Positions 1 to 32,589 of a stretch of DNA of 64,000 nucleotides are shown here, in pieces. Within the stretch, counting starts at the first letter, position 1, and the number at the start of each line of letters is the position of its first letter. The DNA is from a virus. Lineage: Duplodnaviria > Caudoviricetes. The translations under genes were made by a program, and so were the position numbers. A model generated the notes under the pieces. That model ran no database searches, had not been told where the DNA came from, and was given only the letters and a program-made list of their open reading frames with translations. The stretch lies in the IMG/VR virus record IMGVR_UViG_2600255093_000008, positions 1 through 64,000 of that record. One strand, written 5' to 3'.

Positions 1-876
1 CATGAAGTACACCCAATTCCAGCCCGAAGGCTTGAAACTCAGTTCAAACGTGATGTCCCACTCGTACCCGTTGCCGAGAGGTGAGTGCCGGCGGATGGGT
101 TTGAAGCCGGAGAACAGCACACATCCTTGCGGCATGCCGAACATTTCCGCACTGTTGATCTTCCCCAGGAACTGATCGTCTCCTTCGTCGCTGCCGAATA
201 CCCGCTGCCACAGCGCACTTCCGGGTTGCAGCGCTTCCTCTGGGAGTCGGTGCCACGTCACACTCACCACCGCGGACGGCATGATCTTACCGACGTTCAT
301 CGGGATCGACTGACCGTTCGGGGCCGCAGGAGTGCCGCGCTGCCACACGAACGCCGCCCCGGGCAGTTGGAGGTATTCGCCCGCAACCTCAAAAGCGTCA
401 CGACTCACGTAGCGGATCGTCTCGTCGTCACCCGCATCTGCAACGTCCTCATCCGTCGCCTGTGCGAACTGCATGTGCTCGTAAAGGACGCTAAATTCGC
501 AGTCCTGGAATACGTTGAGCTGTTCCGCGTTGAACTCGTACCCCTCTTCGGAATCAATCGGCACTTCGTTCCCGATCCACTTGTGGCCACGTGCGGCAAG
601 AATCTTGGTCGCTATCAATTTCCGGTACTTGGGGTGCGCCTGCGCGGGCAACCGGGACAGCTTCGTCGTGCCCGAATCGTCATATATCTGCGCGTGGCCG
701 AGGAAGAACGCGAATACGGCGGAACGGTGCTCCCACGCACACAGGAATGTCCGTTCCGCGTGGCTCGAATCGACTTCAAATGCTTCGGTCGGACTTCCAC
801 CGTCGCGTACCCCCCGCTCGCGGATCTTCCAACTCTTAATCGTCGCGACGTCCGGCGGCTCGATCGCGGGCATCAT
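1..876 (-). CDS. Phage tail-region protein (partial, runs off window start); homologue of 47537-48520
   Basis: Manual translation gives an open frame MMPAIEPPDVATIKSWKIRERG...LSRLPAQAHPKYRKL...SVTWHRLPEEAL...FLGKINSAEMFGMPQGCVLFSG...WDITFELSFKPSGWNWVYFM; upstream AGAGGT; motif order matches the prophage B protein. Confidence 0.7.
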   Translation of the reverse strand, partial: MMPAIEPPDVATIKSWKIRERGVRDGGSPTEAFEVDSSHAERTFLCAWEHRSAVFAFFLGHAQIYDDSGTTKLSRLPAQAHPKYRKLIATKILAARGHKWIGNEVPIDSEEGYEFNAEQLNVFQDCEFSVLYEHMQFAQATDEDVADAGDDETIRYVSRDAFEVAGEYLQLPGAAFVWQRGTPAAPNGQSIPMNVGKIMPSAVVSVTWHRLPEEALQPGSALWQRVFGSDEGDDQFLGKINSAEMFGMPQGCVLFSGFKPIRRHSPLGNGYEWDITFELSFKPSGWNWVYFM

Positions 877-1112
877 TCACCTCTGTTGGTTCTGAAGAAC
901 AATTTGGCGAAAGATTATATGTTCTTGACCGCGAGTTTGAAACAGTTGCCACTGGCGCGATTGCGCGTACTGCGCCGATTGCGCCATCCGGACCGGGGGT
1001 GTAGAGGGGAAATCTCGCAGGTGTGATCGGCTGAACAGTGGCGGCGCAGTTATCCTTGATGTGGGTAATTTCCTCTCTCATACCCACCAACTCGCACTCC
1101 GAGGTGAGAGGC

Positions 1113-1409
1113 ATGCGGCCACTTGTAATACAGTATGATCTGAGCAGCGCAAGCGAATTCGACTATCGGCCCCTCATCGACGAACTACACAAGTTCGGGG
1201 CGGTGCGGGCAACGAAGTCGGTCTGGTTCGTAGCGTCGTCGGCGAAACCGGTCGCGGTCCGGGATCACTTCCTCCGTTACATGCACGCGGACGATATGAT
1301 TTCCGTGAACACACTAGCCGTTGGTGGCGGTTACGCAACACAAAATTTGTCCGGCGCGGCCCTCGCGTGGCTCAAGGAATACACGCAGGCCAAAGAGAAA
1401 GTGCGCTGA
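1113..1409 (+). CDS. Stand-alone Cas2/VapD-like small protein (SinR-like family)
   Basis: VIQYDL...DYRPLIDELHKFG...SVWFV...VRDHFLRYMHADD...AWLK pattern; GAGAGG RBS before ATG 1113. Confidence 0.6.
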   Translation: MRPLVIQYDLSSASEFDYRPLIDELHKFGAVRATKSVWFVASSAKPVAVRDHFLRYMHADDMISVNTLAVGGGYATQNLSGAALAWLKEYTQAKEKVR

Positions 1410-1453
1410 CCCGACGCACAGTGTATCGGGACGCGCTCCTCGATTGACCGCTC

Positions 1454-1915
1454 CTAACGCCGGGGCGTGCGGCAGTGCCGTGCGGCGATCATCGCCTCGT
1501 AACGGTCCTGTTCGGCCCACGCCTCCTGTACCACGCGGATGCGCCGCTCGTCGCACCCGTGCAGGTCCGAGATGCAGTCCTCGGTGTACCCGCGCCCCTC
1601 CGAGCGGCACACGTCACACGGAGACTTATCGAGTCGCATACGATCCACCCGAGCCTCGCGCTTGCGCAGAACCTCGTCCCGTGCGGCCTTCACTGCGGCT
1701 GCTCGCGCGGCCTGCTCCGCGATCACTTTCTCCGCGGCCGCACGTGTGGCGGCCGCACGTGTGGCGGCCGCACGCGCGGCCTGTTCCGCCGCCTGCTCCG
1801 CGATAATCGCTGCCCGCTTTGCCGCTTCCTCCGCGGTCTTTCTCTTGGCGGCCTGAGCCACCTCGTAGCGCGCTAAACGGCGTTCGAGCCTACGAAGCCA
1901 TGCTCCAGTTCCCAT
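1454..1915 (-). CDS. Ala/Arg-rich hypothetical protein with C-terminal CxxC
   Basis: ORF with AAGGAG RBS; co-oriented with the satellite operon. Confidence 0.55.
   Translation of the reverse strand: MGTGAWLRRLERRLARYEVAQAAKRKTAEEAAKRAAIIAEQAAEQAARAAATRAAATRAAAEKVIAEQAARAAAVKAARDEVLRKREARVDRMRLDKSPCDVCRSEGRGYTEDCISDLHGCDERRIRVVQEAWAEQDRYEAMIAARHCRTPRR
1734..1778. repeat. 15-bp tandem repeat x3 (GCGGCCGCACGTGTG) encoding RAAAT repeats
   Basis: Seen directly; third copy imperfect. Confidence 0.9.
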
Positions 1916-1916
1916 C

Positions 1917-2315
1917 TCAGCTCCTTTCACGTTGACCGCGGTGGTCCGCGGCGATCTGTTCCAGTACGGTCAGCCGCACGTCCTCGTCCGTAACCTTGCA
2001 CGTTCGCAGTGCCAGGTCCGCCAGTGCGAGCGCGGCCCGCATTCGCACCATCGCGGGCTGGTTCGTGTCGTCGCGGATCTCCCGCAACACGTCCACGGAC
2101 GACCGGAACTCGCGCTTAAGCGTCGTCACGGACTCGGACCAGTGCGCCCCCCGCGCGGTCGCGAGCGCGACTCGGACGTCGGGCCGGGCCAACGCGCGGT
2201 ACACGGTCGCGTGCCCGACCCCGAGTTCGGCCGCAGCCTGGACCGGCGTTTTGCCCTCCGTCAACAGCGCGACGAGGGCTTCGTCGCGCACCGATAACGA
2301 TTCATTGAGACTCAC
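1917..2315 (-). CDS. HTH protein (satellite-type, possible small-terminase-like/packaging protein)
   Basis: LLTEGKTPVQAAAELGVGHATVYRAL helix-turn-helix followed by a helical VRMRAALALADL tail. Confidence 0.65.
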   Translation of the reverse strand: MSLNESLSVRDEALVALLTEGKTPVQAAAELGVGHATVYRALARPDVRVALATARGAHWSESVTTLKREFRSSVDVLREIRDDTNQPAMVRMRAALALADLALRTCKVTDEDVRLTVLEQIAADHRGQRERS

Positions 2316-2370
2316 GAATTACACCCTCGAATCGAATTCCCGTCGTGCCCCGAACTGCGAGCCGCGAGTG

Positions 2371-2727
2371 TTAGTAGAGCGGTAGCGCGTTGAGAGCCTC
2401 GATCGCCGCTTCCTGTCGGGCGACCTCGTCGAGCCGAGCGTTTACGAACGCCGCGATCTCAGTCCCGAGCGCGTCCAGTTTCGCCTGCGCGTCGGCGGCC
2501 AGCGCTGCAATCGCGCTCTGCCGGTCGGATAGGGTTCCGGCGTTCCGCACCGCTTCGTCGATCGCGTTGTGGCTCGCGATCTTAACGAATTGAAGTTCCT
2601 CAAGACGCGCGATCGCGTCCCTCGTCGAGAGCGGAACGTAGACGGGGATCGTGAGCGCGCTCCGGCTCGCGTTGCCCGTTGGGATCAGCTTCGGTGCCCC
2701 GACCTGGGCGGAAGTTGTCGTGCTCAT
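2371..2727 (-). CDS. Hypothetical coiled-coil protein
   Basis: AGGAG RBS before ATG 2727 (MSTTTSAQ...). Confidence 0.6.
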   Translation of the reverse strand: MSTTTSAQVGAPKLIPTGNASRSALTIPVYVPLSTRDAIARLEELQFVKIASHNAIDEAVRNAGTLSDRQSAIAALAADAQAKLDALGTEIAAFVNARLDEVARQEAAIEALNALPLY

Positions 2728-2892
2728 TACCAGACTCCTGTTAAGGGACCAAACTGCGGTCACCGTGACCGCGGAAACCAGTTCAACCAAGAGCCAACAA
2801 AAACCCACACTTCGCTTGCAAATTGAAACGCTTATTAATTGGATCTTTAATCGCGATCTTGGTTACAGTTGCCCGCACTGCGATCGAGTACA

Positions 2893-3187
2893 GGTGACGA
2901 GGTGACAGGGGCAGTTTTCAACCCTGTCACGCATTGAACCCCAAGAGCTACAAGCGGTTGGAGCGAGGGCGTGACAGGTGACAGGGGGGAAGCGTATTAC
3001 CGACTTCTCTCTGGCAAAGGCATCTGTGTCTCTCATTAAGAGAGAGATCCTTAGCTGTACTTAGTTTCTAAGTCACTTACCCTGTCACCCTGTCACTAAC
3101 CAGTTACAAACCCTGTAATTTCAAGCCTTTGAGCCGGTGACAGGGTAAGTTGTCGCCCCTGTCACCGATCCGTCACGCCTGTCACCC
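2893..3187. repeat. Cluster of about 12 GTGAC(A)/(T)GTCAC motifs in both orientations; putative replication origin (iterons)
   Basis: GGTGACAGGG and CCTGTCAC repeated around an AT-richer core at the 3' end of the primase-helicase. Confidence 0.7.
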
Positions 3188-6078
3188 GACTGCCGTCCGT
3201 GCTTGCCCGACTTCGCGGCTCTCGACTGCCCGACAAGATCACGTAGCTCGGTCGCTTTCTTTCGCGCGCGTAGCCCACTCGCGTCGGGCAGGTCACCTCC
3301 GACCCAAAAGTACACTCGCGCGGTGTTCGTTCGACCGCGCACGATTTGCGGGATCTTGCCTGCGTAGCGCCCGACTTCGGCGAGGGCCGCCGCAGGTTTG
3401 CGGCGCCCGGTCCGGTACAGAGCACCGTCCGCGATCATCGCCACCTCCTCGACCGTCAGTTCGATAACCGCCGATTCGAGTTCGTCGCGCGGAACCGCCC
3501 GTTGCGTCGCGAGGTAGGTTCGGAACGCTTCGGCCAGCGCTTCGGCGTTCACGTCGTCGCTATCGGCTGCGTCGCGCCGCTCCCCTAGCTCCCGTAACAC
3601 GGCCTCAAACTCCGCGCGATCGGCACAGCACCCGGCCAGAACCTTCGTCTCCCACAGCGACCACCGGCTCAGCCCCGGCGCGGACGCCCAATCGAGTGTC
3701 TCGGCTCGGCGGATCACGTCGATCGCGCTGGCCCACAACTCGGCGTAATAATCCGGGTTGGTGCGGTATTCGTTCACATTGTCGCCCCAACGCGGGTCGC
3801 GCGTGCTCGGACGCGCGAGGCGGATTGGAACCACGCGCTGAGCGAAGTCCTTGCTCAATGACCCGCCGTTCATAGTGAGAAAAATCGTGTGGTAGTTCCG
3901 AACCCGCCCCTCTCCCGCGTACAGTTGACGGCCCGAGTGTTCTTCCGCGGTGATCAACCCTTCAAAGTCCCCGTTGCTCAGTTGATCGGATTTGATGTTG
4001 TCCAGGATGATGACCCACTTGCCCGTTCCTTCCGGGGACAAGATGCGGGTCCGAAGGTCGCTCACCGTGCTGTCCTGCGTGAACGACAGCGCCCCGCCCG
4101 CGTGTGCGGCATTGCATTCCGCCGCGGTAGATTTACCCACACCCCGCCCGCCCTCGGCATCGTCCTCCGGCGCCGTGAATAGAAACACGGGGCGCTTGCC
4201 CGGTGGCCCGCCCCAACTCAACGTGACGAACGCGGCTTTCAGCAGCACCCGGTCGACGGCCGCTGCCGGGTTAAATTCCCCAATGAAGCGATCGAGAACG
4301 TCGTAGTGCGGGCACTGGCGCTGCGCCGCAGGCAACGGAACCGACTCGACGCAGAACATATCCGAAGGCATGGGGTATCGCGGGCGCGGGAAGTACCCGT
4401 GATACTTGGGCACAAGGGCGCGCACCGCGCCGGGCATATCGTCCCAGACGGGCAACCCCGTCCCGTCCCGCCACACAATCGGGTACTGTGCGTTCCGCAC
4501 CACCCGCGCGACGTAGGCGTGTAGAGCCTTCGCGGTGGAAATCGCAACCACGTGCCCGTCTTCGACCGCGAACAAGCCGCCGGGGAAGCTGTTGAGCGTG
4601 CTCCCGACCGCGGCCACGATGTCGGCGGCGATGTCGTTGACGTTCCGGCCGACGATCTCGAACTCATGAGGGGCCGTTCCGGTCGGGTCGGCCGGGAGAT
4701 CCGCCACCTGAAACGCGCGTTCGTCTGCCGCCCCGAGTTCGTTCCACATTTGGAGCAATTGGTGCGGTGTAACCCCGAGTGCGTCCGCGATCGCGCGGCG
4801 CCGCTTCTCGTTGGTCGGATTCGCCCGATCGCAGAAAACCACCGCACCGTTTTTGCACCCCTCGATCGTAACTGTGTTGTTCTTGGCGGGGTTGCTGAAC
4901 CTTACGACATCGGTCTTGCGGTCCGCGGGATCGCACTTCGCGGTGGCTTTCGGCCGTTCGAGGAAGTTGGCGATGGTGTTCACGGGCAGCATCGCCCGAT
5001 CCGCCTTCTTACGCGCGGCCTCGACGTCCGCGCCGGCTTCGCGGGCACACGAGAAGACGGCCGCCGAGTACGCGGGCTTCAGTATCGAATCGGGTATGGC
5101 CGGGAACCGTTTACGAAGGTGTGGCGCGGTAACCTCCCACCGCGAACCCTGCTTAACCATCTGGAAAAGCGGGCTGTCGTGGGTCAGCGCCGGCTCGCCA
5201 ACAACGTGCTCCGGGATAATCGCGGAGAACGGAACGAAGCCCGGATTACGCATACGGCCGTATCCAAGCCCCTTACCCTCGCACCGGAAACACTTGATCC
5301 CGCCTTCCTGAATCTGTATCGGGTTCACGGACGACGACGGACCGGGGGCAATCGGGCACTCCTCATGCGAGAGGCGTTGGTTGATGTGCCAGCCGCGCGT
5401 TTCGAGCCATTCGTCCCGCCTCTCGGGATCTACCTCACGGCGCGGATGGAACCCCGCTGAAAACCCGGATACGTCGGTGTTCGGAGTTTGGGTGTAGACC
5501 GCGCCACCGAGCGCGCCACCGTGCTTCGTCGAGGGTGACATGGGGTTGCGAGAGCGGGAGAGAAGCTCCGCTCCGGCGGACCGGTCGGCTTCGAGCCACG
5601 CCACGGCCGCCACTGCCGCGAGTTCTTTCGCGGTATAGCCGTCCGCCGCGGCGTAGATGAGTTTACACCCACCACCGTGACTCAGGTGGTACGCGAAAGG
5701 CCGGGGCTGAATCCCCGCGGCGCGAGTCTCCGTTAACTCGGGTTTGGGTGGGTAGGCTTGGTGGTAGTCCACGTCCAGTTCGCATGCCCGATCAGTGCCT
5801 TCCCACCCGATAACTTCATCCGGCGTGTCGCTCGTACTCAAGGCGGTCAAAATTGCTTCTTGGGGCGTCTCCCCGGTGATCGGTATCGCCTCACTTGCGG
5901 TGGTGTGCATGGACCGCTTGTAAAGCGTGAATGCCCCGCTCGCTCCAAGAGGTAACGCCTCAATGTCGGCTTGAACATTGCCCTTCCGCAACGGGGTACT
6001 CGAACCGGAATCGGCCCCATTTGAATCGATTGCTAATTCTATCGCTTTATTTTCATCTCTTGTGTGCGTAGAATCCAT
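3121..6078 (-). CDS. AEP-type primase/polymerase fused to SF3 helicase
   Basis: ELDVD, HLSHGGGCKLIY, Zn-finger CPI...CFRC, Walker A GRGVGKST, Walker B IILDN, motif C FLTMN; AGGAG RBS before ATG 6078. Confidence 0.85.
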   Translation of the reverse strand: MDSTHTRDENKAIELAIDSNGADSGSSTPLRKGNVQADIEALPLGASGAFTLYKRSMHTTASEAIPITGETPQEAILTALSTSDTPDEVIGWEGTDRACELDVDYHQAYPPKPELTETRAAGIQPRPFAYHLSHGGGCKLIYAAADGYTAKELAAVAAVAWLEADRSAGAELLSRSRNPMSPSTKHGGALGGAVYTQTPNTDVSGFSAGFHPRREVDPERRDEWLETRGWHINQRLSHEECPIAPGPSSSVNPIQIQEGGIKCFRCEGKGLGYGRMRNPGFVPFSAIIPEHVVGEPALTHDSPLFQMVKQGSRWEVTAPHLRKRFPAIPDSILKPAYSAAVFSCAREAGADVEAARKKADRAMLPVNTIANFLERPKATAKCDPADRKTDVVRFSNPAKNNTVTIEGCKNGAVVFCDRANPTNEKRRRAIADALGVTPHQLLQMWNELGAADERAFQVADLPADPTGTAPHEFEIVGRNVNDIAADIVAAVGSTLNSFPGGLFAVEDGHVVAISTAKALHAYVARVVRNAQYPIVWRDGTGLPVWDDMPGAVRALVPKYHGYFPRPRYPMPSDMFCVESVPLPAAQRQCPHYDVLDRFIGEFNPAAAVDRVLLKAAFVTLSWGGPPGKRPVFLFTAPEDDAEGGRGVGKSTAAECNAAHAGGALSFTQDSTVSDLRTRILSPEGTGKWVIILDNIKSDQLSNGDFEGLITAEEHSGRQLYAGEGRVRNYHTIFLTMNGGSLSKDFAQRVVPIRLARPSTRDPRWGDNVNEYRTNPDYYAELWASAIDVIRRAETLDWASAPGLSRWSLWETKVLAGCCADRAEFEAVLRELGERRDAADSDDVNAEALAEAFRTYLATQRAVPRDELESAVIELTVEEVAMIADGALYRTGRRKPAAALAEVGRYAGKIPQIVRGRTNTARVYFWVGGDLPDASGLRARKKATELRDLVGQSRAAKSGKHGRQSGDRRDGSVTGATTYPVTGSKA

Positions 6079-6306
6079 TGTCACTCCTGTTACTGCTCCG
6101 GGTGGCGCCGGGGCCGAAGCACACCGCACGTCGGCGCGGTGTGTTTTCGTTTTGGCTCCGTGCGATCTGATCCTTCGGTTCTCAGAAAACCGCTCAATGC
6201 TCAAGCGACCATTGAGCGGTTTGGCTTCCGCCGTCACTGCGAGTTGGGTTCACTCGGGAACATTTCCACGGTGCCGGCGGGTACCGCCGCCACGATCTGT
6301 TGAGCG

Positions 6307-6636
6307 TCAGACACCCAGGAGCGCGAGCGTCGCGTTTGCCGCGGCGACACCTCGTTCCCGTTCTGCGGGCGTGCGCAAAGCGGGGGCATTGTCCGGTGCC
6401 ACGTGCGTAGCCGTGATCCGCTCAATGAAGGCATCGAGCCAGTCCTGGCACGTCGCCCACTTCGAGCCGATGCGAACCGCACGTAGCTTCACGCGCGTTC
6501 CATCGCCCGCGCGCACGTCCGTTTGAATCCAACGTGTCAGCGTGGCCGAGTAAACACCGCGCCCGCCGCGCCCCGTGTCGCCGAGTCGTCGCGCGGCTTC
6601 AGCTAGCCCGATCAAGCGCGTCCCGTTGTCGCTCAC
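6307..6636 (-). CDS. DUF1580-like excisionase/AlpA-type DNA-binding protein
   Basis: IGLAEAARRL...SATLTRWIQ...KLRAVRIGSKWAT pattern; GTG start with GGGAG RBS; adjacent to integrase. Confidence 0.8.
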   Translation of the reverse strand: MSDNGTRLIGLAEAARRLGDTGRGGRGVYSATLTRWIQTDVRAGDGTRVKLRAVRIGSKWATCQDWLDAFIERITATHVAPDNAPALRTPAERERGVAAANATLALLGV

Positions 6637-6774
6637 GTTCGGCTCCCGTTCGTGTCGTGTGAGTTCGCAAAGGCTGTCACTAATTAGTAGGCACGCGACG
6701 AGACGGCGCACTAGGGGCAGAAACGCTGAAAATTGCAGTATTTCGCGCTGTATGTGCGAATCGCGATGGAAATT

Positions 6775-6812
6775 GCAACGGCCGCTGCAATTGGTGTTGC
6801 AGCGGCCGTTGC
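6775..6812. promoter_or_regulatory. Perfect 16-bp inverted repeat between integrase and DUF1580 gene
   Basis: GCAACGGCCGCTGCAA-ttggtg-TTGCAGCGGCCGTTGC. Confidence 0.6.
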
Positions 6813-6839
6813 GAGTGAGGGTTTTCGGGGTCGCGGGCA

Positions 6840-8069
6840 CTAACCGGCGCGCTCCGCGGCGTGCATCGCGAGCGCGCGGTCCGCAGTCCGGCTGTAGTGA
6901 TCGGACATGTTCAAGGCGGAGTGCCCGAGTACCGCGCGAACGTGGTCGGGGCCGAATTGCTCGCGCAACTCAACGGCGCGCAGGTGGCGGAGCGTGTAGG
7001 GTGTGAACGGGGCGACACCCGCTTTCAGGCACGCGCGGCGCACGGCACATGAAAGAGTGAGGTGCGAGTAGACCGCGCCCGGCGCGCGTTTCCGGGCCGC
7101 TCCTTTTCGCTTCGTGGCGTTTCGCCGCATGTGCGAAGGCCAGCGTTTCGTCTTTCGGGCCGCGGACCGCTCAGTGTTGTGTTCGGCGTGCGCGCGGGCT
7201 GGCGAGAAGACGTAATCATCGGGATCGGGCGTTTTGTCCAACCAGGGAGCTAGAACCGTTTGGGCGTCCGGCCCGATGTAGACGGCCCGCGACTTCCCGC
7301 GCCAACTGCTCTTGTGACGGGTCGGCTTCAGTTCCCAGATGGGACCGGTGCGATCGATCTCGCACGGTTTCATTTTCAGAATCTCCGACGGGCGCGCCCC
7401 CGTCAGCCAAAGGGTGCGGATGATCGCGGCCACCGGTGGCCGGAGCAGAGGTAACACCTTCGCGACCGCGGTCGGATCGGCGGGCATACGAGCCTCTCCC
7501 TCCGCGGCCCCGTCACGCCCCGGCGCAAGGGGGCGCACCGCGCTCAATTTTTCCAGCACCCCCACCGCGACGGGTAACCCGTCCTCGACGCACCAACGAA
7601 TGAACCCCCGCACCATTTTCGCGCGCCGGTTGACTTGGTTCCGGACTCGGCCGTCGCCGATCATGGCTTGACGGACCGTTTTGAAGCACCGAATGTCGAA
7701 CTCTGCCAGCGGCAGCGCGCCGAAAAACCGTTGGAGGTAGCGGAGTGTAATTTTGATGTCTTCGGCCGTTCCGGTCGGCGTACCGTCCGGATTGCGGTAG
7801 TAACCTTCGACGTGCGAAACGTACTTCACGAGCGCTTCGGCCACGGTCAGATCGGCGGGCGCGTTAACGGGCGCCGGCGCCCCGTGGACCGGCGCAACCG
7901 ATCGGCCCGCACGAAGCCGCACGAGTAACCGTTCGTATTCCAGTTGAGCTTGCTCGGAACCCCAGGGACCGAGTGTGACCGTGCGGCGGGTCGGACCGTC
8001 GTAAATATCGACGACCGCGGCGCCTTTGTGTTGACGGGGGTTCGGGAACGGATTTTTCCGACGCGACAT
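6840..8069 (-). CDS. int: Tyrosine integrase of element S
   Basis: TGARPSEI, YTLRHLRA, VLGHSALNMSDHY catalytic motifs; 110 bp from the att copy. Confidence 0.95.
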   Translation of the reverse strand: MSRRKNPFPNPRQHKGAAVVDIYDGPTRRTVTLGPWGSEQAQLEYERLLVRLRAGRSVAPVHGAPAPVNAPADLTVAEALVKYVSHVEGYYRNPDGTPTGTAEDIKITLRYLQRFFGALPLAEFDIRCFKTVRQAMIGDGRVRNQVNRRAKMVRGFIRWCVEDGLPVAVGVLEKLSAVRPLAPGRDGAAEGEARMPADPTAVAKVLPLLRPPVAAIIRTLWLTGARPSEILKMKPCEIDRTGPIWELKPTRHKSSWRGKSRAVYIGPDAQTVLAPWLDKTPDPDDYVFSPARAHAEHNTERSAARKTKRWPSHMRRNATKRKGAARKRAPGAVYSHLTLSCAVRRACLKAGVAPFTPYTLRHLRAVELREQFGPDHVRAVLGHSALNMSDHYSRTADRALAMHAAERAG

Positions 8070-8384: not shown

Positions 8385-8736
8385 GTATTGTGAACAAATA
8401 AACACACGAAGCCAGCCTAAGTGTCTAATTGCAAGCCTTAAGAAGCGATGAAAAGGAGCACAAATGCGATCTCTCTTCAATTCCTGCAAAACAATATTTT
8501 CACTCGAAATTATTCCAACAGAATAAATACTTCGAAGATTCCAATTGGCATATTAACCACTTTCACTTGGTTTGCGATACAAAGCTTATTACCATTCCGT
8601 AGGTGAAATATATCAAGTGTCAATCAGAACAATACCAAACAATTCCTTCTGACGCCGCTTGACTTCCAACCATTTCGCGTGATCATTTTTCTGGGGCTTG
8701 TCCTTTTCGGCGAATTGCGCCTTCAGGGAAGCCCTC

Positions 8737-9102
8737 ATGTGCGACAACATCTACGGATTACTTGCGATCGTCGCGGTAGCTATTGCAGCCGTTCGGTTGG
8801 TTGAAAAGGTTCTGCCAAAGGCTTACGTAGTTATAAAGTGGTTTGGTTTGCTGATCATCTTTAGCGACACTCCTCCAAAGGAAGAGCACAAAGCTCCGGA
8901 GGAATCGCATAAAGCTCAAAACGCTGTCTGCGATTCGTCACCTCCAAAGCAAAAGCGAAAGCGGAAGCCAAAGCCCCCGAGCAGTGATGTGGAGATCCCT
9001 CCTTCTATCACTGCGCCGCTTGGCACCACCCCTACATCTGCTACGATCAAATCTCAGTTGGAACCAATCCCATTGGAACCAACGGTCAAATCAAAGGAGT
9101 AG
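8737..9102 (+). CDS. Membrane protein with Pro/Lys-rich C-terminal tail
   Basis: N-terminal hydrophobic segments followed by a low-complexity tail. Confidence 0.55.
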   Translation: MCDNIYGLLAIVAVAIAAVRLVEKVLPKAYVVIKWFGLLIIFSDTPPKEEHKAPEESHKAQNAVCDSSPPKQKRKRKPKPPSSDVEIPPSITAPLGTTPTSATIKSQLEPIPLEPTVKSKE

Positions 9103-9105
9103 CAG

Positions 9106-9369
9106 ATGCGTCTCGACGATGACGGCGACTACGAATTCGTTCGCGTCCCGAAGAAGCGGAAGGTGAAGGGCAAAAACTGGTTCGCGGTGAAGGTGTACGC
9201 GGTCGGTGTTGTGCTGGCGATCGGGTTCATTGCGTTGAACGCGATCCACGGGGCAACGAGTCAGCAGATTCGGAACGAGACGGAACGATCGCAGCAACTT
9301 GGTGAGCAACACTCGCGAATGGTGGGTGCGGAAATCGAACGGAATCGAAAAGCAGCCGGGTTCAAATAG
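9106..9369 (+). CDS. Single-TM hypothetical protein
   Basis: GGAG RBS; hydrophobic VYAVGVVLAIGFIAL. Confidence 0.6.
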   Translation: MRLDDDGDYEFVRVPKKRKVKGKNWFAVKVYAVGVVLAIGFIALNAIHGATSQQIRNETERSQQLGEQHSRMVGAEIERNRKAAGFK

Positions 9370-9744
9370 TTTCAAGAAACGCCAAAATCGTAACAACAGT
9401 TGAAATCACCTGGGAATAAACTTGAGCGACTGATTTCGGGTGGGTAGATTTACGTTCTGAACTCGGCTGCCGAACTAAGGGGGAATGGGCGCCTCTCCTA
9501 GCGACCGGCAGCCGAGTTTTTTCTGTAAACACTTCACCCCGCTTCCGAGCGGGGTTTTTCGTTTCTAAGGCGAACATTGATTGCGAAGAAGGCGCAGTGA
9601 GCAATATTGCGCCAAAGCTCTTGCGTGAGCAAAGTTCCTGCCACTTCCTTCTAACCCACTGGTGAAATAGGTTGCACGGATGCAGAATCAGGATAAACTT
9701 AGAGTTAGTGGGCACATGTCCACTCCAGCCCAACGGAGACTACC

Positions 9745-9897
9745 GTGAGCGAGAAGGACGAGAGTAAAGAAAAGGAAGAGAAAAAAGAGCCAGAGAAGAA
9801 GTCACCTCTCGACATCAAAAACCTTATCGAGCCTCGCAAAATCCAGGCGAGCGAAGACCCACTGTATAGGTGGCGCAACATTAAACCGAAGGAGTGA
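9745..9897 (+). CDS. Micro-peptide 1 (50 aa) MSEKDESKEKEEKKEPEKKSPLDIKNLIEPRKIQASEDPLYRWRNIKPKE
   Basis: Manual translation; GGAG RBS; preceded by a TTGCAC...TAAACT promoter-like sequence; shares IxPxxxQxSE motif with neighbours. Confidence 0.65.
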   Translation: MSEKDESKEKEEKKEPEKKSPLDIKNLIEPRKIQASEDPLYRWRNIKPKE

Positions 9898-9899
9898 TT

Positions 9900-10082
9900 G
9901 TGTCTGACCAGCCCAAAAACGAACCAGAGAAGCCTGCTGTCGCGAACACCCCGCCAGCGGCGCAATCACAACCGCCAAAGCCGAATCCCAAAGCGGACAT
10001 TGCTCCAAGATGTCTTCACTTCTCTGAAGACAGTCAACCAACGCGCATGGTCCGCAAGAAACCTACGGACAACAAGGGGTAA
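9900..10082 (+). CDS. Micro-peptide 2 (60 aa) MSDQPKNEPEKP...KPNPKADIAPRCLHFSEDSQPTRMVRKKPTDNKG
   Basis: AAGGAG RBS overlapping the previous stop; shared motif. Confidence 0.7.
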   Translation: MSDQPKNEPEKPAVANTPPAAQSQPPKPNPKADIAPRCLHFSEDSQPTRMVRKKPTDNKG

Positions 10083-10090
10083 TCGTACCA

Positions 10091-10225
10091 ATGGCAGATG
10101 ATAAGAAACCAGAACCAAACCAAGCACCAAAAGAAAAGGCTGTGGCTCAGCCAAAATCCCCTAATCCCAAAGAGGGTATACAGCCAACGAAAGTGCAAGA
10201 AAGCAAATACCCTAACAACAAGTGA
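10091..10225 (+). CDS. Micro-peptide 3 (44 aa) MADDKKPEPNQAPKEKAVAQPKSPNPKEGIQPTKVQESKYPNNK
   Basis: Manual translation; AAGGGG RBS; shared PNPKE-I-P motif. Confidence 0.7.
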   Translation: MADDKKPEPNQAPKEKAVAQPKSPNPKEGIQPTKVQESKYPNNK

Positions 10226-10234
10226 GTCTCTGCC

Positions 10235-10354
10235 ATGTCAAACAAGCCGCCATCGATCCCGACAAGTCCGCCACCTCGTCCAAACCCGAAGGAGGATATC
10301 AGACCTGGGCGTGAAGAGCGCCAAGACAATGCTGGCGATCGGAAGACAAAGTAG
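10235..10354 (+). CDS. Micro-peptide 4 (39 aa) MSNKPPSIPTSPPPRPNPKEDIRPGREERQDNAGDRKTK
   Basis: Manual translation; shared PNPKEDIxP motif; weak RBS. Confidence 0.6.
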   Translation: MSNKPPSIPTSPPPRPNPKEDIRPGREERQDNAGDRKTK

Positions 10355-11114
10355 TTTTCGGCGTGGCAGGTCCGTCCGATGTAGCGGATGGGGGCTTTAA
10401 AGCGAGGTATACTAGCGCCGCGCTGATTGTGATAACAGGAATTAACACAAACAATAATGATTGAGCGTAGAACTCGTGGGCGCGTCTAAGATCATCCGAT
10501 TTTTGTTTGTTGCGGTAAGCGTATGCCTCACAAATCGGATGACAAATAAGAACTAAATTTAGCTCTGCCTCCTCTGCACTTGCGTAATTTTCTGCGAGGT
10601 GAACCGCCTTTGTCAGCGGAGGGGGCGTAGCTGCCGATTGAGGGCTTCGCACACGCAATGCTGCCTGCACTGCTAAAAGAGCAAAGCACAAGGAAGGAAT
10701 AAGTGAAACTAGAGCAATCAGCCCAAGCAAACATGTCTCAGGCTTTTCGGGCTTGATGGAGACAAGCGCCCCGAAGGTCAGCAAGGCAGAACCACCTCCT
10801 AGGTACTTAATTATTGAATCAGCCTTTTCATCCAATTTGCCATCTGTCTTCTCGAACCTCTCTTGCAAATCCTTCGCGTATTTCATTATCCATCCGTATT
10901 CAACCTTGTCCTTCTTTTCAAAATTTTTGAAAAAATCAACCGCGTCGTTGTAATCTTTTGACGATGAGTAATCGGACTTAACTTGACAGTAAATGCTTTT
11001 GTAATATTGGGTTGCAGATCGATACGTCGTCACGAGGATCTCATACGCCCGGACTTCGAGGCGTTTTCCAGTTCGCGGGCTGGATTTATTAGGAGGGGGA
11101 GGCGAATTGCTCAT
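10299..11114 (-). CDS. Three-TM membrane protein, loosely DUF5706/Pycsar-effector-like topology
   Basis: LDEKADSIIKYLGGGSALLTFGAL (TM1), TM2, soluble loop, NKQKSDDLRRA then TM3. Confidence 0.6.
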   Translation of the reverse strand: MSNSPPPPNKSSPRTGKRLEVRAYEILVTTYRSATQYYKSIYCQVKSDYSSSKDYNDAVDFFKNFEKKDKVEYGWIMKYAKDLQERFEKTDGKLDEKADSIIKYLGGGSALLTFGALVSIKPEKPETCLLGLIALVSLIPSLCFALLAVQAALRVRSPQSAATPPPLTKAVHLAENYASAEEAELNLVLICHPICEAYAYRNKQKSDDLRRAHEFYAQSLLFVLIPVITISAALVYLALKPPSATSDGPATPKTTLSSDRQHCLGALHAQV

Positions 11115-11406
11115 GGCAAATTCACGAGGGGAGCAAAAAGCAAAAAAAACGGCTTAAAATCGGCAAATTAACTGTTGTTATGCTGGAGCAGTTCGTGCAA
11201 AGCTTCAAGGTCATTTACGCAAAATTCGTTCACGGGCAGGCTCATACTCAGCCAAAAACGGAATTATTACGCAAATCAGTCAGACACCGCACGATTTGCT
11301 TAAAAGCCGCTCTAATTAGAATATGTGCGACACTTCCGCCGCCTGCCGATCCGCAGGTATTCTGCCCGAAACCCTCAACAAATTCGTTCGTGCGGGCTGG
11401 TTCGAG

Positions 11407-12156
11407 ATGCCAACCAATCGCGTTGACGGTTGGCTCGTGTGGTCCGAGCACGACCAGGAGCGACTAAACGAACTCGTTGCACAAGGGCGCAACCCAAGCC
11501 CTAATCCACTTCCACAGATCGACAGCACCGCATTCAACGCACAAGTTCGGTTTTCGCTTCCAACACCAGAACCAAAGCCGAAGAAGGAACGAGCGCCCAA
11601 GCCCAAGCCAGAACCGAAACCAAAGAAGTTGCGAGAACCCAAACCGAAGAAGGAACGGACTGTCCGTACCGTCACTTACGAAGGCCACCCCTACACGATC
11701 ACCGAACTCGCTCAGCACCTCGGAATGCACCGTCAATCGCTCTCAAAGAAACTTAGAAAGTGTGGCTGGGATGTGGGAAAGGCTCTCGCACCAAAGCCCA
11801 AAGCCGAACGAACAGCGAAACCACCGCAACCCAAAGTACGGAACGCACCTAAACCCGTCATTCACGAAGGTGTCGAATACCGAAGTATGGCAGCACTCGC
11901 TAAGCACCTGGGAATCGAACGGCGCACACTGTCCTACCGTCTGAACAGCGGAATCGCACCCGAGCAAGCCACTTCTTCCACCAAATCAAAGCCCGGAACG
12001 AAACCGCGACAGTTCCAATTCCAGGGACAACAAGTCACCATCACTCAACTCTGCGAACGGTTCGGACTCGCACCCAACACCGCTGCTGCCCGACTCCAAC
12101 GGCACAATTTCAACGCCGAACAAGCATTCGCAGATAAATTACAGCAGCATCACTAG
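11407..12156 (+). CDS. DNA-binding protein with three repeated HTH-like modules and Lys/Pro linkers
   Basis: YEGHPYTITELAQHLGM, HEGVEYRSMAALAKHLGI, FQGQQVTITQLCERFGL repeats. Confidence 0.65.
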   Translation: MPTNRVDGWLVWSEHDQERLNELVAQGRNPSPNPLPQIDSTAFNAQVRFSLPTPEPKPKKERAPKPKPEPKPKKLREPKPKKERTVRTVTYEGHPYTITELAQHLGMHRQSLSKKLRKCGWDVGKALAPKPKAERTAKPPQPKVRNAPKPVIHEGVEYRSMAALAKHLGIERRTLSYRLNSGIAPEQATSSTKSKPGTKPRQFQFQGQQVTITQLCERFGLAPNTAAARLQRHNFNAEQAFADKLQQHH

Positions 12157-31389: not shown

Positions 31390-32589
31390 ATGGCTCGTCC
31401 GGCTAAGAATGCGCTCCCCATCGGGGACACGGGAATTGAAGTGAGCGTTTCGCTCAAGCAACGCGGTGACATCTATTCCTGCAAGTTCCCGCACCCAACG
31501 ATTAAGGGCAAATACTGCGAAGTGACCACGGGACGGCGCAGTCAACACGAAGCGTGGGCGGCAGCGGCAAAGATCGTCCTGGAGATGTACCAACCGACCG
31601 TCAAACCCACCGCAAGGAATGTGACCTGGGAACAAGTGCTGGAGGAACTGTCATTTGCCAAAGGCATTCGAGCACGAACAATCGAACTTTACTCGAATAC
31701 AGTAAAAATTCTAAGAGTATTCGTTGAGACAGCGCGACCGATCGACATTTCCGAAGCCAAAGCGAACCGGTTCGCGGAACTCTATGCAAGCACCCCGTAC
31801 ACTCGCACGAAGGCAGAAGGTGCGAAGCAGTACACGCGCAGTGCGAAGACGGTAGACAACGCGATTCACTTCCTGTCTTGTCTGTGGACACGATTAAAAA
31901 AGATGGGGTATGTCAACTCTAACCCCTGGCAGAGTGTGCCCCGCCCGGATATTCCGAAAAAGCAACCGACTGCTCCGACAGAGCAAGAGTTCGCGGAGTT
32001 CTTCGCGTGGCTCGATGCCAAAGAATGGGAACTGATGAGCGTACTGCTTCGCTTGAAGTCACTTTCTGGCTGCCGTACCCTCGATGTCTGTTCGCTCGGA
32101 ACGAAGCACTTCGATCCGAAAGCCGGTGCAGTAATCATTCCTCCCGAGTTAGACAAGACGCACCGCGAACGGCTAATCCCGCTACCGCCCGACCTCGCCA
32201 AAAGAATAAATTTAATCAAAGGCAGAGTCTACCTCTGGGATCGGTACACCCCAGAAACGCAGCAGAGGGACGCGCGAGCAACGGACAAGTTTTACCCCAA
32301 ACTCCTCGCGATGGCGGTTCGCAGGCTGTTCCGGCGCTACTACATCGAGTGCCCTGAGCGTCCCCGCATTAAGCCACACGATTTCCGACGACGGGCAATC
32401 ACGCTTACCGTGAAGGCAACCGGTTCAGTGGACGCAGCAGCATCGGCACTCGGCGTCAGACCCGAAACTGCGATGCGGCATTACATCGACGCGGAGAAGG
32501 CATTCAAAGGTCAGGAACTGATGCGGAAGATGGCGGACATCCTATTGCCCCAAAACCCTGCCCCGATTGTCCCAGAACCCGAGAAGTGA
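31390..32589 (+). CDS. int: Tyrosine integrase of prophage A
   Basis: SGCRTLDV, KPHDFRR, AMRHY; about 360 bp from att. Confidence 0.92.
   Translation: MARPAKNALPIGDTGIEVSVSLKQRGDIYSCKFPHPTIKGKYCEVTTGRRSQHEAWAAAAKIVLEMYQPTVKPTARNVTWEQVLEELSFAKGIRARTIELYSNTVKILRVFVETARPIDISEAKANRFAELYASTPYTRTKAEGAKQYTRSAKTVDNAIHFLSCLWTRLKKMGYVNSNPWQSVPRPDIPKKQPTAPTEQEFAEFFAWLDAKEWELMSVLLRLKSLSGCRTLDVCSLGTKHFDPKAGAVIIPPELDKTHRERLIPLPPDLAKRINLIKGRVYLWDRYTPETQQRDARATDKFYPKLLAMAVRRLFRRYYIECPERPRIKPHDFRRRAITLTVKATGSVDAAASALGVRPETAMRHYIDAEKAFKGQELMRKMADILLPQNPAPIVPEPEK

Follow-up and report, generated by a model that had tools for sequence, protein, structure and literature searches.

In Pycsar (an antiphage resistance system based on a pyrimidine cyclase), the membrane effector PycTM is encoded next to a pyrimidine cyclase, PycC, and the signal between the two is a cyclic nucleotide; in CBASS (cyclic oligonucleotide-based antiphage signaling system) and related systems, small helical membrane effectors of the SLATT/2TM type are partnered by SMODS, SLOG or CD-NTase proteins. 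Among toxin-antitoxin (TA) systems, the type I pairs txpA/RatA and bsrG/SR4 have convergent transcripts that overlap at their 3' ends, and typical type II antitoxins carry a DNA-binding domain. Class II bacteriocin/immunity loci place tandem, small, paralogous peptide genes beside a small protein with several transmembrane (TM) helices. Here we describe an array of four micro-genes, at positions 9745-10354 of a 64,000-nt stretch of DNA (positions 1 to 64,000 of the viral record IMGVR_UViG_2600255093_000008; hereafter "the window"), which converges on the gene for a 271-aa membrane protein and can be set against each of these systems. A limited full-text search of the literature (PycTM, Pycsar, orphan effector) returned no description of peptide arrays with PycTM-like proteins.

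The open reading frames (ORFs) of the array exist, are paralogous, and are linked to one membrane-protein family in two gene orders, with no other common partner gene. Our favoured interpretation, to which we assign a probability of about one half, is that the four ORFs are real, translated micro-genes and represent one copy of a conserved mobile two-part module, in which disordered Pro/Lys-rich peptides would control a PycTM-like membrane protein with three helices.

The array and its membrane-protein partner

An initial reading of the window, referred to here as the original prediction, had claimed four ORFs of 50, 60, 44 and 39 aa, and the ORF list bears this out. They lie head-to-tail on the plus strand, use three different frames and are parted by gaps of 2, 8 and 9 nt. 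Micro-peptide 1 (9745-9897, 50 aa) starts at a GTG with GGAG 6 nt upstream; micro-peptide 2 (9900-10082, 60 aa) also starts at a GTG, with AAGGAG 5 nt upstream, and an alternative GTG at 9894 in the ORF list would extend it to 62 aa; micro-peptides 3 (10091-10225, 44 aa) and 4 (10235-10354, 39 aa) each start at an ATG. Purine runs resembling a Shine-Dalgarno (SD) motif are found 5' of ORFs 1-3 and none before ORF4, in keeping with the prediction that most of the ORFs have a ribosome-binding site.

The convergent gene (10299-11114, minus strand) encodes a protein of 271 aa, in which a helical, cytosolic N-terminal region is combined with three predicted TM helices and a loop in the cytosol. Its 22 homologues bring the family to 23 members, all restricted to the Gemmataceae, and their alignment (A4) has an invariant block where the long cytosolic helix gives way to TM1. 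The AlphaFold2 (AF2) model of the window protein is all-helical, with a mean predicted local distance difference test score (pLDDT) of 81, and the model together with the positive-inside rule predicts that the conserved soluble parts are cytosolic. The PADLOC models for PycTM match 13 of the 23 family members (best E = 2.6e-8, covering profile positions 10-152 of 154); the Pfam family PycTM (PF18967) matches five, all of them below threshold, and Pfam SLATT_5 gives a weak match (E = 0.026) in a single member. Look-alike clusters in the Atlas, which we take as leads only, comprise one named for SLATT (0.93) and one in which 11% of the members carry Pfam PycTM (0.89), while a Foldseek search of the model against the PDB returned nothing at E <= 0.001, only generic helical bundles. 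Compared with PycTM, the family proteins carry an additional N-terminal extension of ~60 residues. On the basis of these profile matches, we regard the 271-aa family as probable distant PycTM/SLATT-type membrane proteins. A likeness between the N-terminus of the membrane protein and peptide 4, proposed at the outset, could not be upheld, and neither could the idea that the peptides are copies detached from its tail: a hidden Markov model (HMM) of the peptide core scored at most 0.1 bits on all 23 membrane proteins and matched neither their tails nor their N-termini.

Recurrent linkage of the array to a three-TM protein had been named as a check of the original prediction, and it was found in 17 independent loci, where a membrane-protein homologue stands beside an array of up to five micro-ORFs with the family core. 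The loci (given handles of the form L034) were reached via the contigs that carry homologues of the 271-aa protein, plus genomes of the species, metagenomes and genomes of the family; three were seen twice (L035 = L036; L042 = L056; L043 = L058), and L042/L056 comes from the cultured strain Zavarzinella formosa DSM 19928 (NZ_JH636454, bases 328-6897). Array and membrane-protein gene converge in 13 loci (the window, L034, L035, L038-L043, L050, L055, L059 and L061), and co-directional, directly upstream of that gene, in the other four (L037, from Planctomycetaceae SCGC AG-212-D15, and L047, L048 and L049). The contigs of L046, L051 and L052 end too near the gene for an array to be judged, and L060 has no array beside its membrane-protein homologue. 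In the most distant branch, L044 and L045 (also seen as L053) have, instead of an array, a single conserved polyproline mini-ORF without the [DN]-P-[KR] core directly upstream (L044 2671-2937; L045 2044-2313); L054, of the same branch, has a convergent Pro/Gln-rich mini-ORF downstream of the membrane-protein gene, again without the core.

The question of whether a further gene belongs to the module was addressed by an all-against-all comparison of frames of at least 90 aa from 21 loci, in which the membrane protein was the only one common to all. The loci have neither a cyclase nor a protease, transporter or modifying enzyme in common, and there is no cyclase domain among the called neighbours of L034-L041.

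Linkage in two gene orders argues for products that act in trans, and this bears on an explanation in cis, by which the mini-ORFs would work through translation or transcription, either as polyproline stalling leaders of the effector gene or as a convergent antisense transcript over its 3' end, as in type I TA. ORF4 and the convergent gene share 56 nt at their 3' ends, with an equal overlap in L034 and L035; RNA folding found no terminator-like fold 3' of the array; linkers with 7-11 consecutive prolines occur at some loci and in many family members; and the array is directly upstream of the effector gene in four loci. These are the observations which such a mechanism would explain. However, neither orientation is universal, a leader being excluded in the 13 convergent loci and an antisense overlap in the four co-directional ones. 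Most convergent loci lack the overlap, with gaps of 2-77 nt in L038-L041, and the strongest conservation lies in core and tail residues 3' of the proline runs, the subtype-specific tails included, which pure stalling does not predict. We consider an action in cis improbable.

Coding selection and the peptide family

The plus strand is T-poor and A/C-rich and several overlapping frames are open, so that open frames by themselves are no proof of coding. Chance open frames on such a strand, or the remnants of one broken repeat-containing gene, would account for the overlapping frames (for example, 10098-10400) and for ORFs 3 and 4 sharing a frame in which they are parted by one stop codon. They would not account for the period-3 pattern of substitutions, for pN well below pS across loci, for the conserved M-A/S-D/E start and, usually, SD-like motif that each unit has of its own, or for the recurrence of the unit structure in 17 loci of differing GC content, and we find this explanation hardly credible. 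Peptides 3 and 4 are overlapped by the frame at 10098-10400, an Arg/Lys-rich ORF of 100 aa. The codon-position pattern favours the peptide frames, so the scarcity of T on this strand is probably what leaves it open.

The core PNPK-x-x-I-x-P is present in peptides 2-4. The original prediction had named shuffled sequence as the comparison on which the motif could fail; a search with the back-translated core pattern gave three matches in the window, always within the array, and none in 100 dinucleotide-shuffled windows. The whole 9.27 Mb genome likewise contains it three times, and the reversed control is absent. In composition-preserving shuffle tests the similarity between peptides 2 and 4 (p ~0.001), 2 and 3 (p ~0.007) and 3 and 4 (p ~0.025) exceeded that of the shuffles, while the similarity of peptide 1 to the others in the window was not significant (p = 0.15 against peptide 2). 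The claim of four paralogues with an aligned core thus stands for peptides 2-4, and not for peptide 1 from the window alone; its membership in the family follows from its orthologues in other loci, namely L034 and L035 (5497-5643), with canonical type-1 peptides in L037, L040, L048 and L049.

Selection on the peptides had also been claimed, and two lines of evidence support it. The core block of 27 nt has 12 variable sites, and 8 of these are third codon positions (hypergeometric p ~0.002), a bias which points to selection on the peptide and not on a DNA site. Nei-Gojobori counts of the window against its closest orthologues, in L034 and L035, gave pS of 0.5-0.94, which is near saturation, and pN of 0.19-0.42; for micro-peptide 1 against L035 the values are 0.62 and 0.32, respectively. 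Differences between the window and L035 sum to 70, 57 and 109 over the three codon positions (chi-square p ~1e-4). Micro-peptide 4 shares 67-69% protein identity with its orthologues in L034 and L035 at a pS of 0.5-0.75, and the tail of the membrane protein, encoded on the opposite strand of the overlap, is poorly conserved (alignment A4), so that the peptide frame is the constrained one in the overlap. Judged by these substitution patterns, the array peptides are under purifying selection at the protein level.

Some 55 peptides from the 17 loci have a common start, linker and core: an M-A/S-D/E start is followed by a Pro/Gln-rich linker of variable length, the core [DN]-P-[KR]-x-x-[AVI]-x-[PL]-R and, at the end, a short tail of charged residues. 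Among 45 anchored cores, D/N is found in 43, P in 45, K in 44, A/V/I in 42, P/L/I in 40 and R in 30, and 31 of 47 peptides begin M-A-D, M-S-D, M-S-E or M-A-E. An SD-like motif precedes 37 of 46 starts, and intergenic gaps are tight. The peptides have a median length of 51 aa, are net basic, and contain 17.6% Pro, 11.3% Lys and no Trp.

At least four subtypes can be defined by the tail, and their order along the arrays is kept across loci. Type 1, represented in the window by micro-peptide 1, in which the core has drifted from D-P-K to D-I-K, has Pro-Arg and then an Ile/Val-rich stretch. In type 2 (micro-peptide 2; alignment A5, 11 loci) the core is followed by an aromatic-Ser-Glu-Asp-Gly block, of which aromatic-S-E-D is seen in the window, and then by a basic strand; in type 3 (micro-peptide 3) by hydrophobic-x-Glu-Ser and a Lys-rich end; and in type 4 (micro-peptide 4; alignment A6, 9 loci) by an Arg-Glu-Glu-Arg-x-Asp block. 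A fifth type is seen in L038, L042, L047, L048 and L049, and micro-peptide 3 has orthologues in L034, L035, L037, L038, L039, L040, L042, L047 and L049. Since each subtype is separately conserved, the copies do not appear redundant, and the sequences suggest non-redundant roles for them. In two genes, L040 5744-5974 and L041 6309-6473, the core is duplicated internally to give two cores per product; duplication thus enlarges the family both within single genes and from gene to gene.

The absence of signal peptides noted in the original prediction extends to the whole peptide family, in which there is also no double-glycine leader and no amphipathic or hydrophobic segment; hydrophobic residues have a median share of 12.5%, and the longest hydrophobic run is 4. 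An AF2 model of peptide 2, built from an 11-member alignment, has no fold beyond a beta bridge of 2 residues (predicted template modelling score 0.22). This hydrophilic make-up and the lack of a predicted globular fold would fit cytosolic linear-motif ligands. They also bear on a reversal of roles, in which the peptides would be the active agents, as exported signals or toxins or as intracellular inhibitors of a phage or host target, and the membrane protein an exporter, receptor or immunity factor. The layout of array and membrane protein is that of class II bacteriocin/immunity loci, and the peptides are net basic. They lack every one of the export features and membrane-active segments listed above, however, no ABC transporter or processing protease is conserved nearby, and the relatives of the membrane protein are PycTM-type effectors, which makes such a reversal decidedly improbable.

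Another way to read the array is as a set of precursors of ribosomally synthesized and post-translationally modified peptides (RiPPs), with the modification of their conserved core left to an enzyme whose gene lies elsewhere. Multiple tandem precursor-like genes with a conserved core and variable flanks are what one would expect of it. However, the 17 loci have no modifying enzyme in common, no leader-recognition element or transporter is present, and Cys occurs in only 7 of 47 peptides. Moreover, Arg replaces the otherwise invariant core Lys in the entire arrays of L043, L059 and L061, which argues against Lys-specific chemistry. We regard RiPP precursors as very unlikely; the earlier statement that no RiPP-modifying enzyme is nearby held when the neighbours of L034-L041 and the all-against-all comparison were considered, as none is conserved.

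Searches that started from the peptides were close to blank. With a profile built from the window peptides alone (A1), both a word-indexed collection of 5.8 billion proteins and an exhaustive HMM search of 1.84 billion representatives returned only ORF1 itself, the one array member called as a protein in the 5.8-billion collection. The 47-peptide profile (A7) found six called peptides only, five of them from L035, L039 and L041 and the sixth on a 1265-bp contig with four consecutive small genes. As ORFs of this size are rarely called, these blanks say little. At the nucleotide level, a search of 400 genomes of the phylum with the core DNA pattern gave no more than scattered single background matches, and in 40 relatives, 24 of them genomes of the same genus, no match to the window-only profile rose above the low-complexity background. 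Searches of phage records with blastn, scans of viral contigs with the membrane protein, the peptides and TerL, and a genome scan with the neighbouring helix-turn-helix (HTH) protein each found nothing.

Genomic setting and flanking sequences

The GC content of the window is 61-68% except between 8 and 32 kb, where it falls to 46-55%. This island encodes TerL, portal, capsid and tail-completion proteins and an integrase (31390-32589), which together with its low GC content identify it as a prophage; the array is found at its left end, upstream of the packaging genes. The high-GC flank contains a second integrase (6840-8069) and a large DUF5906-like protein, and the host genome (9.27 Mb in 22 contigs, 64% GC) belongs to a planctomycete of the Gemmataceae. 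Against the 64% GC of this Gemmataceae genome the prophage has 50%, and the array and the membrane-protein gene form a moron-like insert at its left end.

The distribution of the module is patchy: a homologue of the membrane protein is encoded in 5 of 120 other genomes of the family, and no peptide arrays were found in the 24 same-genus genomes. Neighbours vary by locus and are typical of mobile or defence regions, including an integrase beside a type IV secretion system coupling protein (L040), an integrase related to it (L042), a transposase (L034), HsdR with HNH (L038), HEPN AbiU2 (L041) and NACHT-LRR (L035). In L040 (6730-7848) and L042 (4346-5776), related tyrosine integrases and a common 90-aa ORF adjoin the module, which suggests that these two copies are carried on related integrative elements. 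A DUF1580/HTH protein encoded in the high-GC element left of the prophage (window 6307-6840) has a homologue just 5' of the L037 array (L037 3326-4000); it is probably a shared mobile-element regulator and not part of the module.

Upstream of the array, two terminator-like hairpins on the plus strand were found by a terminator scan and by folding: the first (9459-9523) has a 14-bp stem followed by a U run, and the second (9536-9565) a stem of 8 bp (6 GC) with a 4-nt loop and a T run. The RNA fold of 9455-9570 has an energy of -50 kcal/mol (z = -4.0), and none of 200 shuffles was equally stable. These tandem hairpins end the preceding operon (8698-9369, plus strand), which consists of two small ORFs directly 5' of the array: one encodes a protein of 134 aa that has a TM helix at its N-terminus and a tail rich in Lys, Pro and Glu, the other a protein of 87 aa with one TM helix, and neither has a match in Pfam or PHROG. 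A lysis- or spanin-like pair is one possibility for them, additional accessory cargo another. The promoter that had been claimed for the array (TTGCAC/TAAACT with a 16-nt spacer, 9673-9700, plus strand) proved weak: it agrees with the sigma-70 consensus at only 7 of 12 positions and was missing from the output of a promoter scan, which covers no planctomycete promoters. Rfam models gave nothing relevant over 9300-11400, apart from one sub-threshold match on the upstream terminators. On the other side of the membrane-protein gene, 11323-12156 encodes a protein of 277 aa with three HTH-like segments and a Lys/Pro-rich repeat tract, matching many HTH families as well as PHROGs for the small terminase subunit and HNH-associated proteins; it may be the small terminase of the prophage or a DNA-binding regulator.

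The proposed module and known systems

In the favoured interpretation, the membrane protein would, like PycTM, be an effector of the pore or depolarisation type, and the cytosolic peptides would act on it in trans through their conserved core, standing where the cyclase and cyclic nucleotide stand in Pycsar. Most likely they would bind the cytosolic N-terminal or loop region of the effector as labile inhibitors or gates, in which case the effector would be freed when the peptides are lost, titrated or cleaved in the course of phage infection or of element loss, and the freed effector would lead to abortive infection or addiction. The binding, the direction of control, the toxicity of the effector and a role in defence against phage are what we infer in this model.

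Several points weigh against this interpretation. The window protein itself falls below the threshold of every PycTM model and owes its assignment to its homologues, and the toxicity of the effector is assumed by analogy, from the family name. An antitoxin would be expected to be co-transcribed, yet most loci are convergent with separate promoters, and the peptides have no DNA-binding domain, unlike typical type II antitoxins. Why several diverged subtypes should be needed to inhibit one protein is not accounted for. The sampling is also narrow, being drawn from one bacterial family and mostly from metagenomic contigs, and some of the loci may be related by descent.

While a labile inhibitor is the most likely role for the peptides, the main alternative is that of a bait or sensor: the peptides would be bait substrates, and their cleavage or sequestration by a phage factor such as the prohead protease would make or remove the signal that opens the effector, the diverse subtypes widening the range of triggers. 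The conserved core is laid out A/V/I - x - P/L - R, and hydrophobic-x-Pro-Arg seems to resemble a P4-P1 site of the trypsin/thrombin type. Consistent with this idea, several diverged subtypes are kept in each array, the Lys/Arg swap at the third core position in L043, L059 and L061 fits recognition of charge or by a protease, and the defence-island and prophage contexts fit the sensing of phage. On the other hand, the resemblance to a protease site is a putative one, and no protease is conserved among the loci; we consider bait peptides unlikely, if less so than the other rival explanations. More tentatively than the favoured interpretation, one may propose a PycTM-like pore gated by a panel of diverged disordered micro-peptides instead of a cyclic nucleotide, where each subtype would be a separate bait or latch and the phage-induced loss, cleavage or sequestration of any one of them would cause membrane collapse. 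Membrane effectors under the control of peptides would then form a new class, for the most part unannotated.

Gene callers miss nearly all of these micro-genes: protein collections with billions of entries contain one of the four described here and very few from other loci. The genes are nonetheless conserved, ordered and tied to an effector of a defence type. Should the peptides control the effector, membrane effectors of the Pycsar/CBASS type would be wired to a protein-encoded signal and not to a nucleotide. Modules for abortive infection or addiction would then follow a logic that is new, and arrays of small ORFs would be shown to be a blind spot in the discovery of defence systems. The module is small (~1.4 kb) and self-contained and, being present in the cultured strain Z. 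formosa DSM 19928, is directly testable.

Compared with known systems, the module is akin to several and identical to none. The similarity to class II bacteriocin loci stops at gene layout, and this identity was rejected on the M-A/S-D/E starts, the missing leader, the longest hydrophobic run of 4 and the lack of a conserved transporter. A RiPP cluster was rejected because no neighbour other than the membrane protein is conserved and no relevant Pfam family is found among the neighbours of L034-L041. As in type I TA pairs (txpA/RatA, bsrG/SR4), a small membrane-protein gene faces the array in the window, L034 and L035, with 56 nt shared at the 3' ends, whereas here the partner on the antisense side encodes conserved peptides; an antisense RNA was rejected, as the overlap is found only in these three loci, is absent from L038-L041 and is impossible in L037 and L047-L049. 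With type II TA the module shares a small, hydrophilic, disordered product beside a putatively toxic protein, carriage as cargo of mobile elements and, in four loci, the small genes placed first in the same operon. It differs in having up to five diverged peptide genes and not one antitoxin, no DNA-binding domain, and a convergent arrangement in 13 loci, and on these grounds the module is probably not a canonical type II system.

The SLATT/2TM effectors of CBASS and related systems are, like the partner protein, small all-helical membrane proteins with a cytosolic sensing part, whereas the loci described here have no SMODS, SLOG or CD-NTase partner, and the similarity is a lead only (Atlas 0.93; SLATT_5 at E = 0.026 in one of 23 members). 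The closest relationship is with Pycsar: the partner family matches the PycTM models of PADLOC almost full length in 13 of 23 members, combines a small helical cytosolic region with TM helices, and is found on mobile elements, near other defence genes. Unlike Pycsar, none of the 17 loci has a cyclase (PycC) or a nucleotide-signalling gene, the micro-peptide array being present instead, and the partner carries its ~60-residue N-terminal extension and, in the window, scores below every PycTM threshold; identity with Pycsar was rejected, the adjacent pyrimidine cyclase being absent. The comparison leaves a membrane effector whose type is known and whose peptide partner is novel and unannotated.

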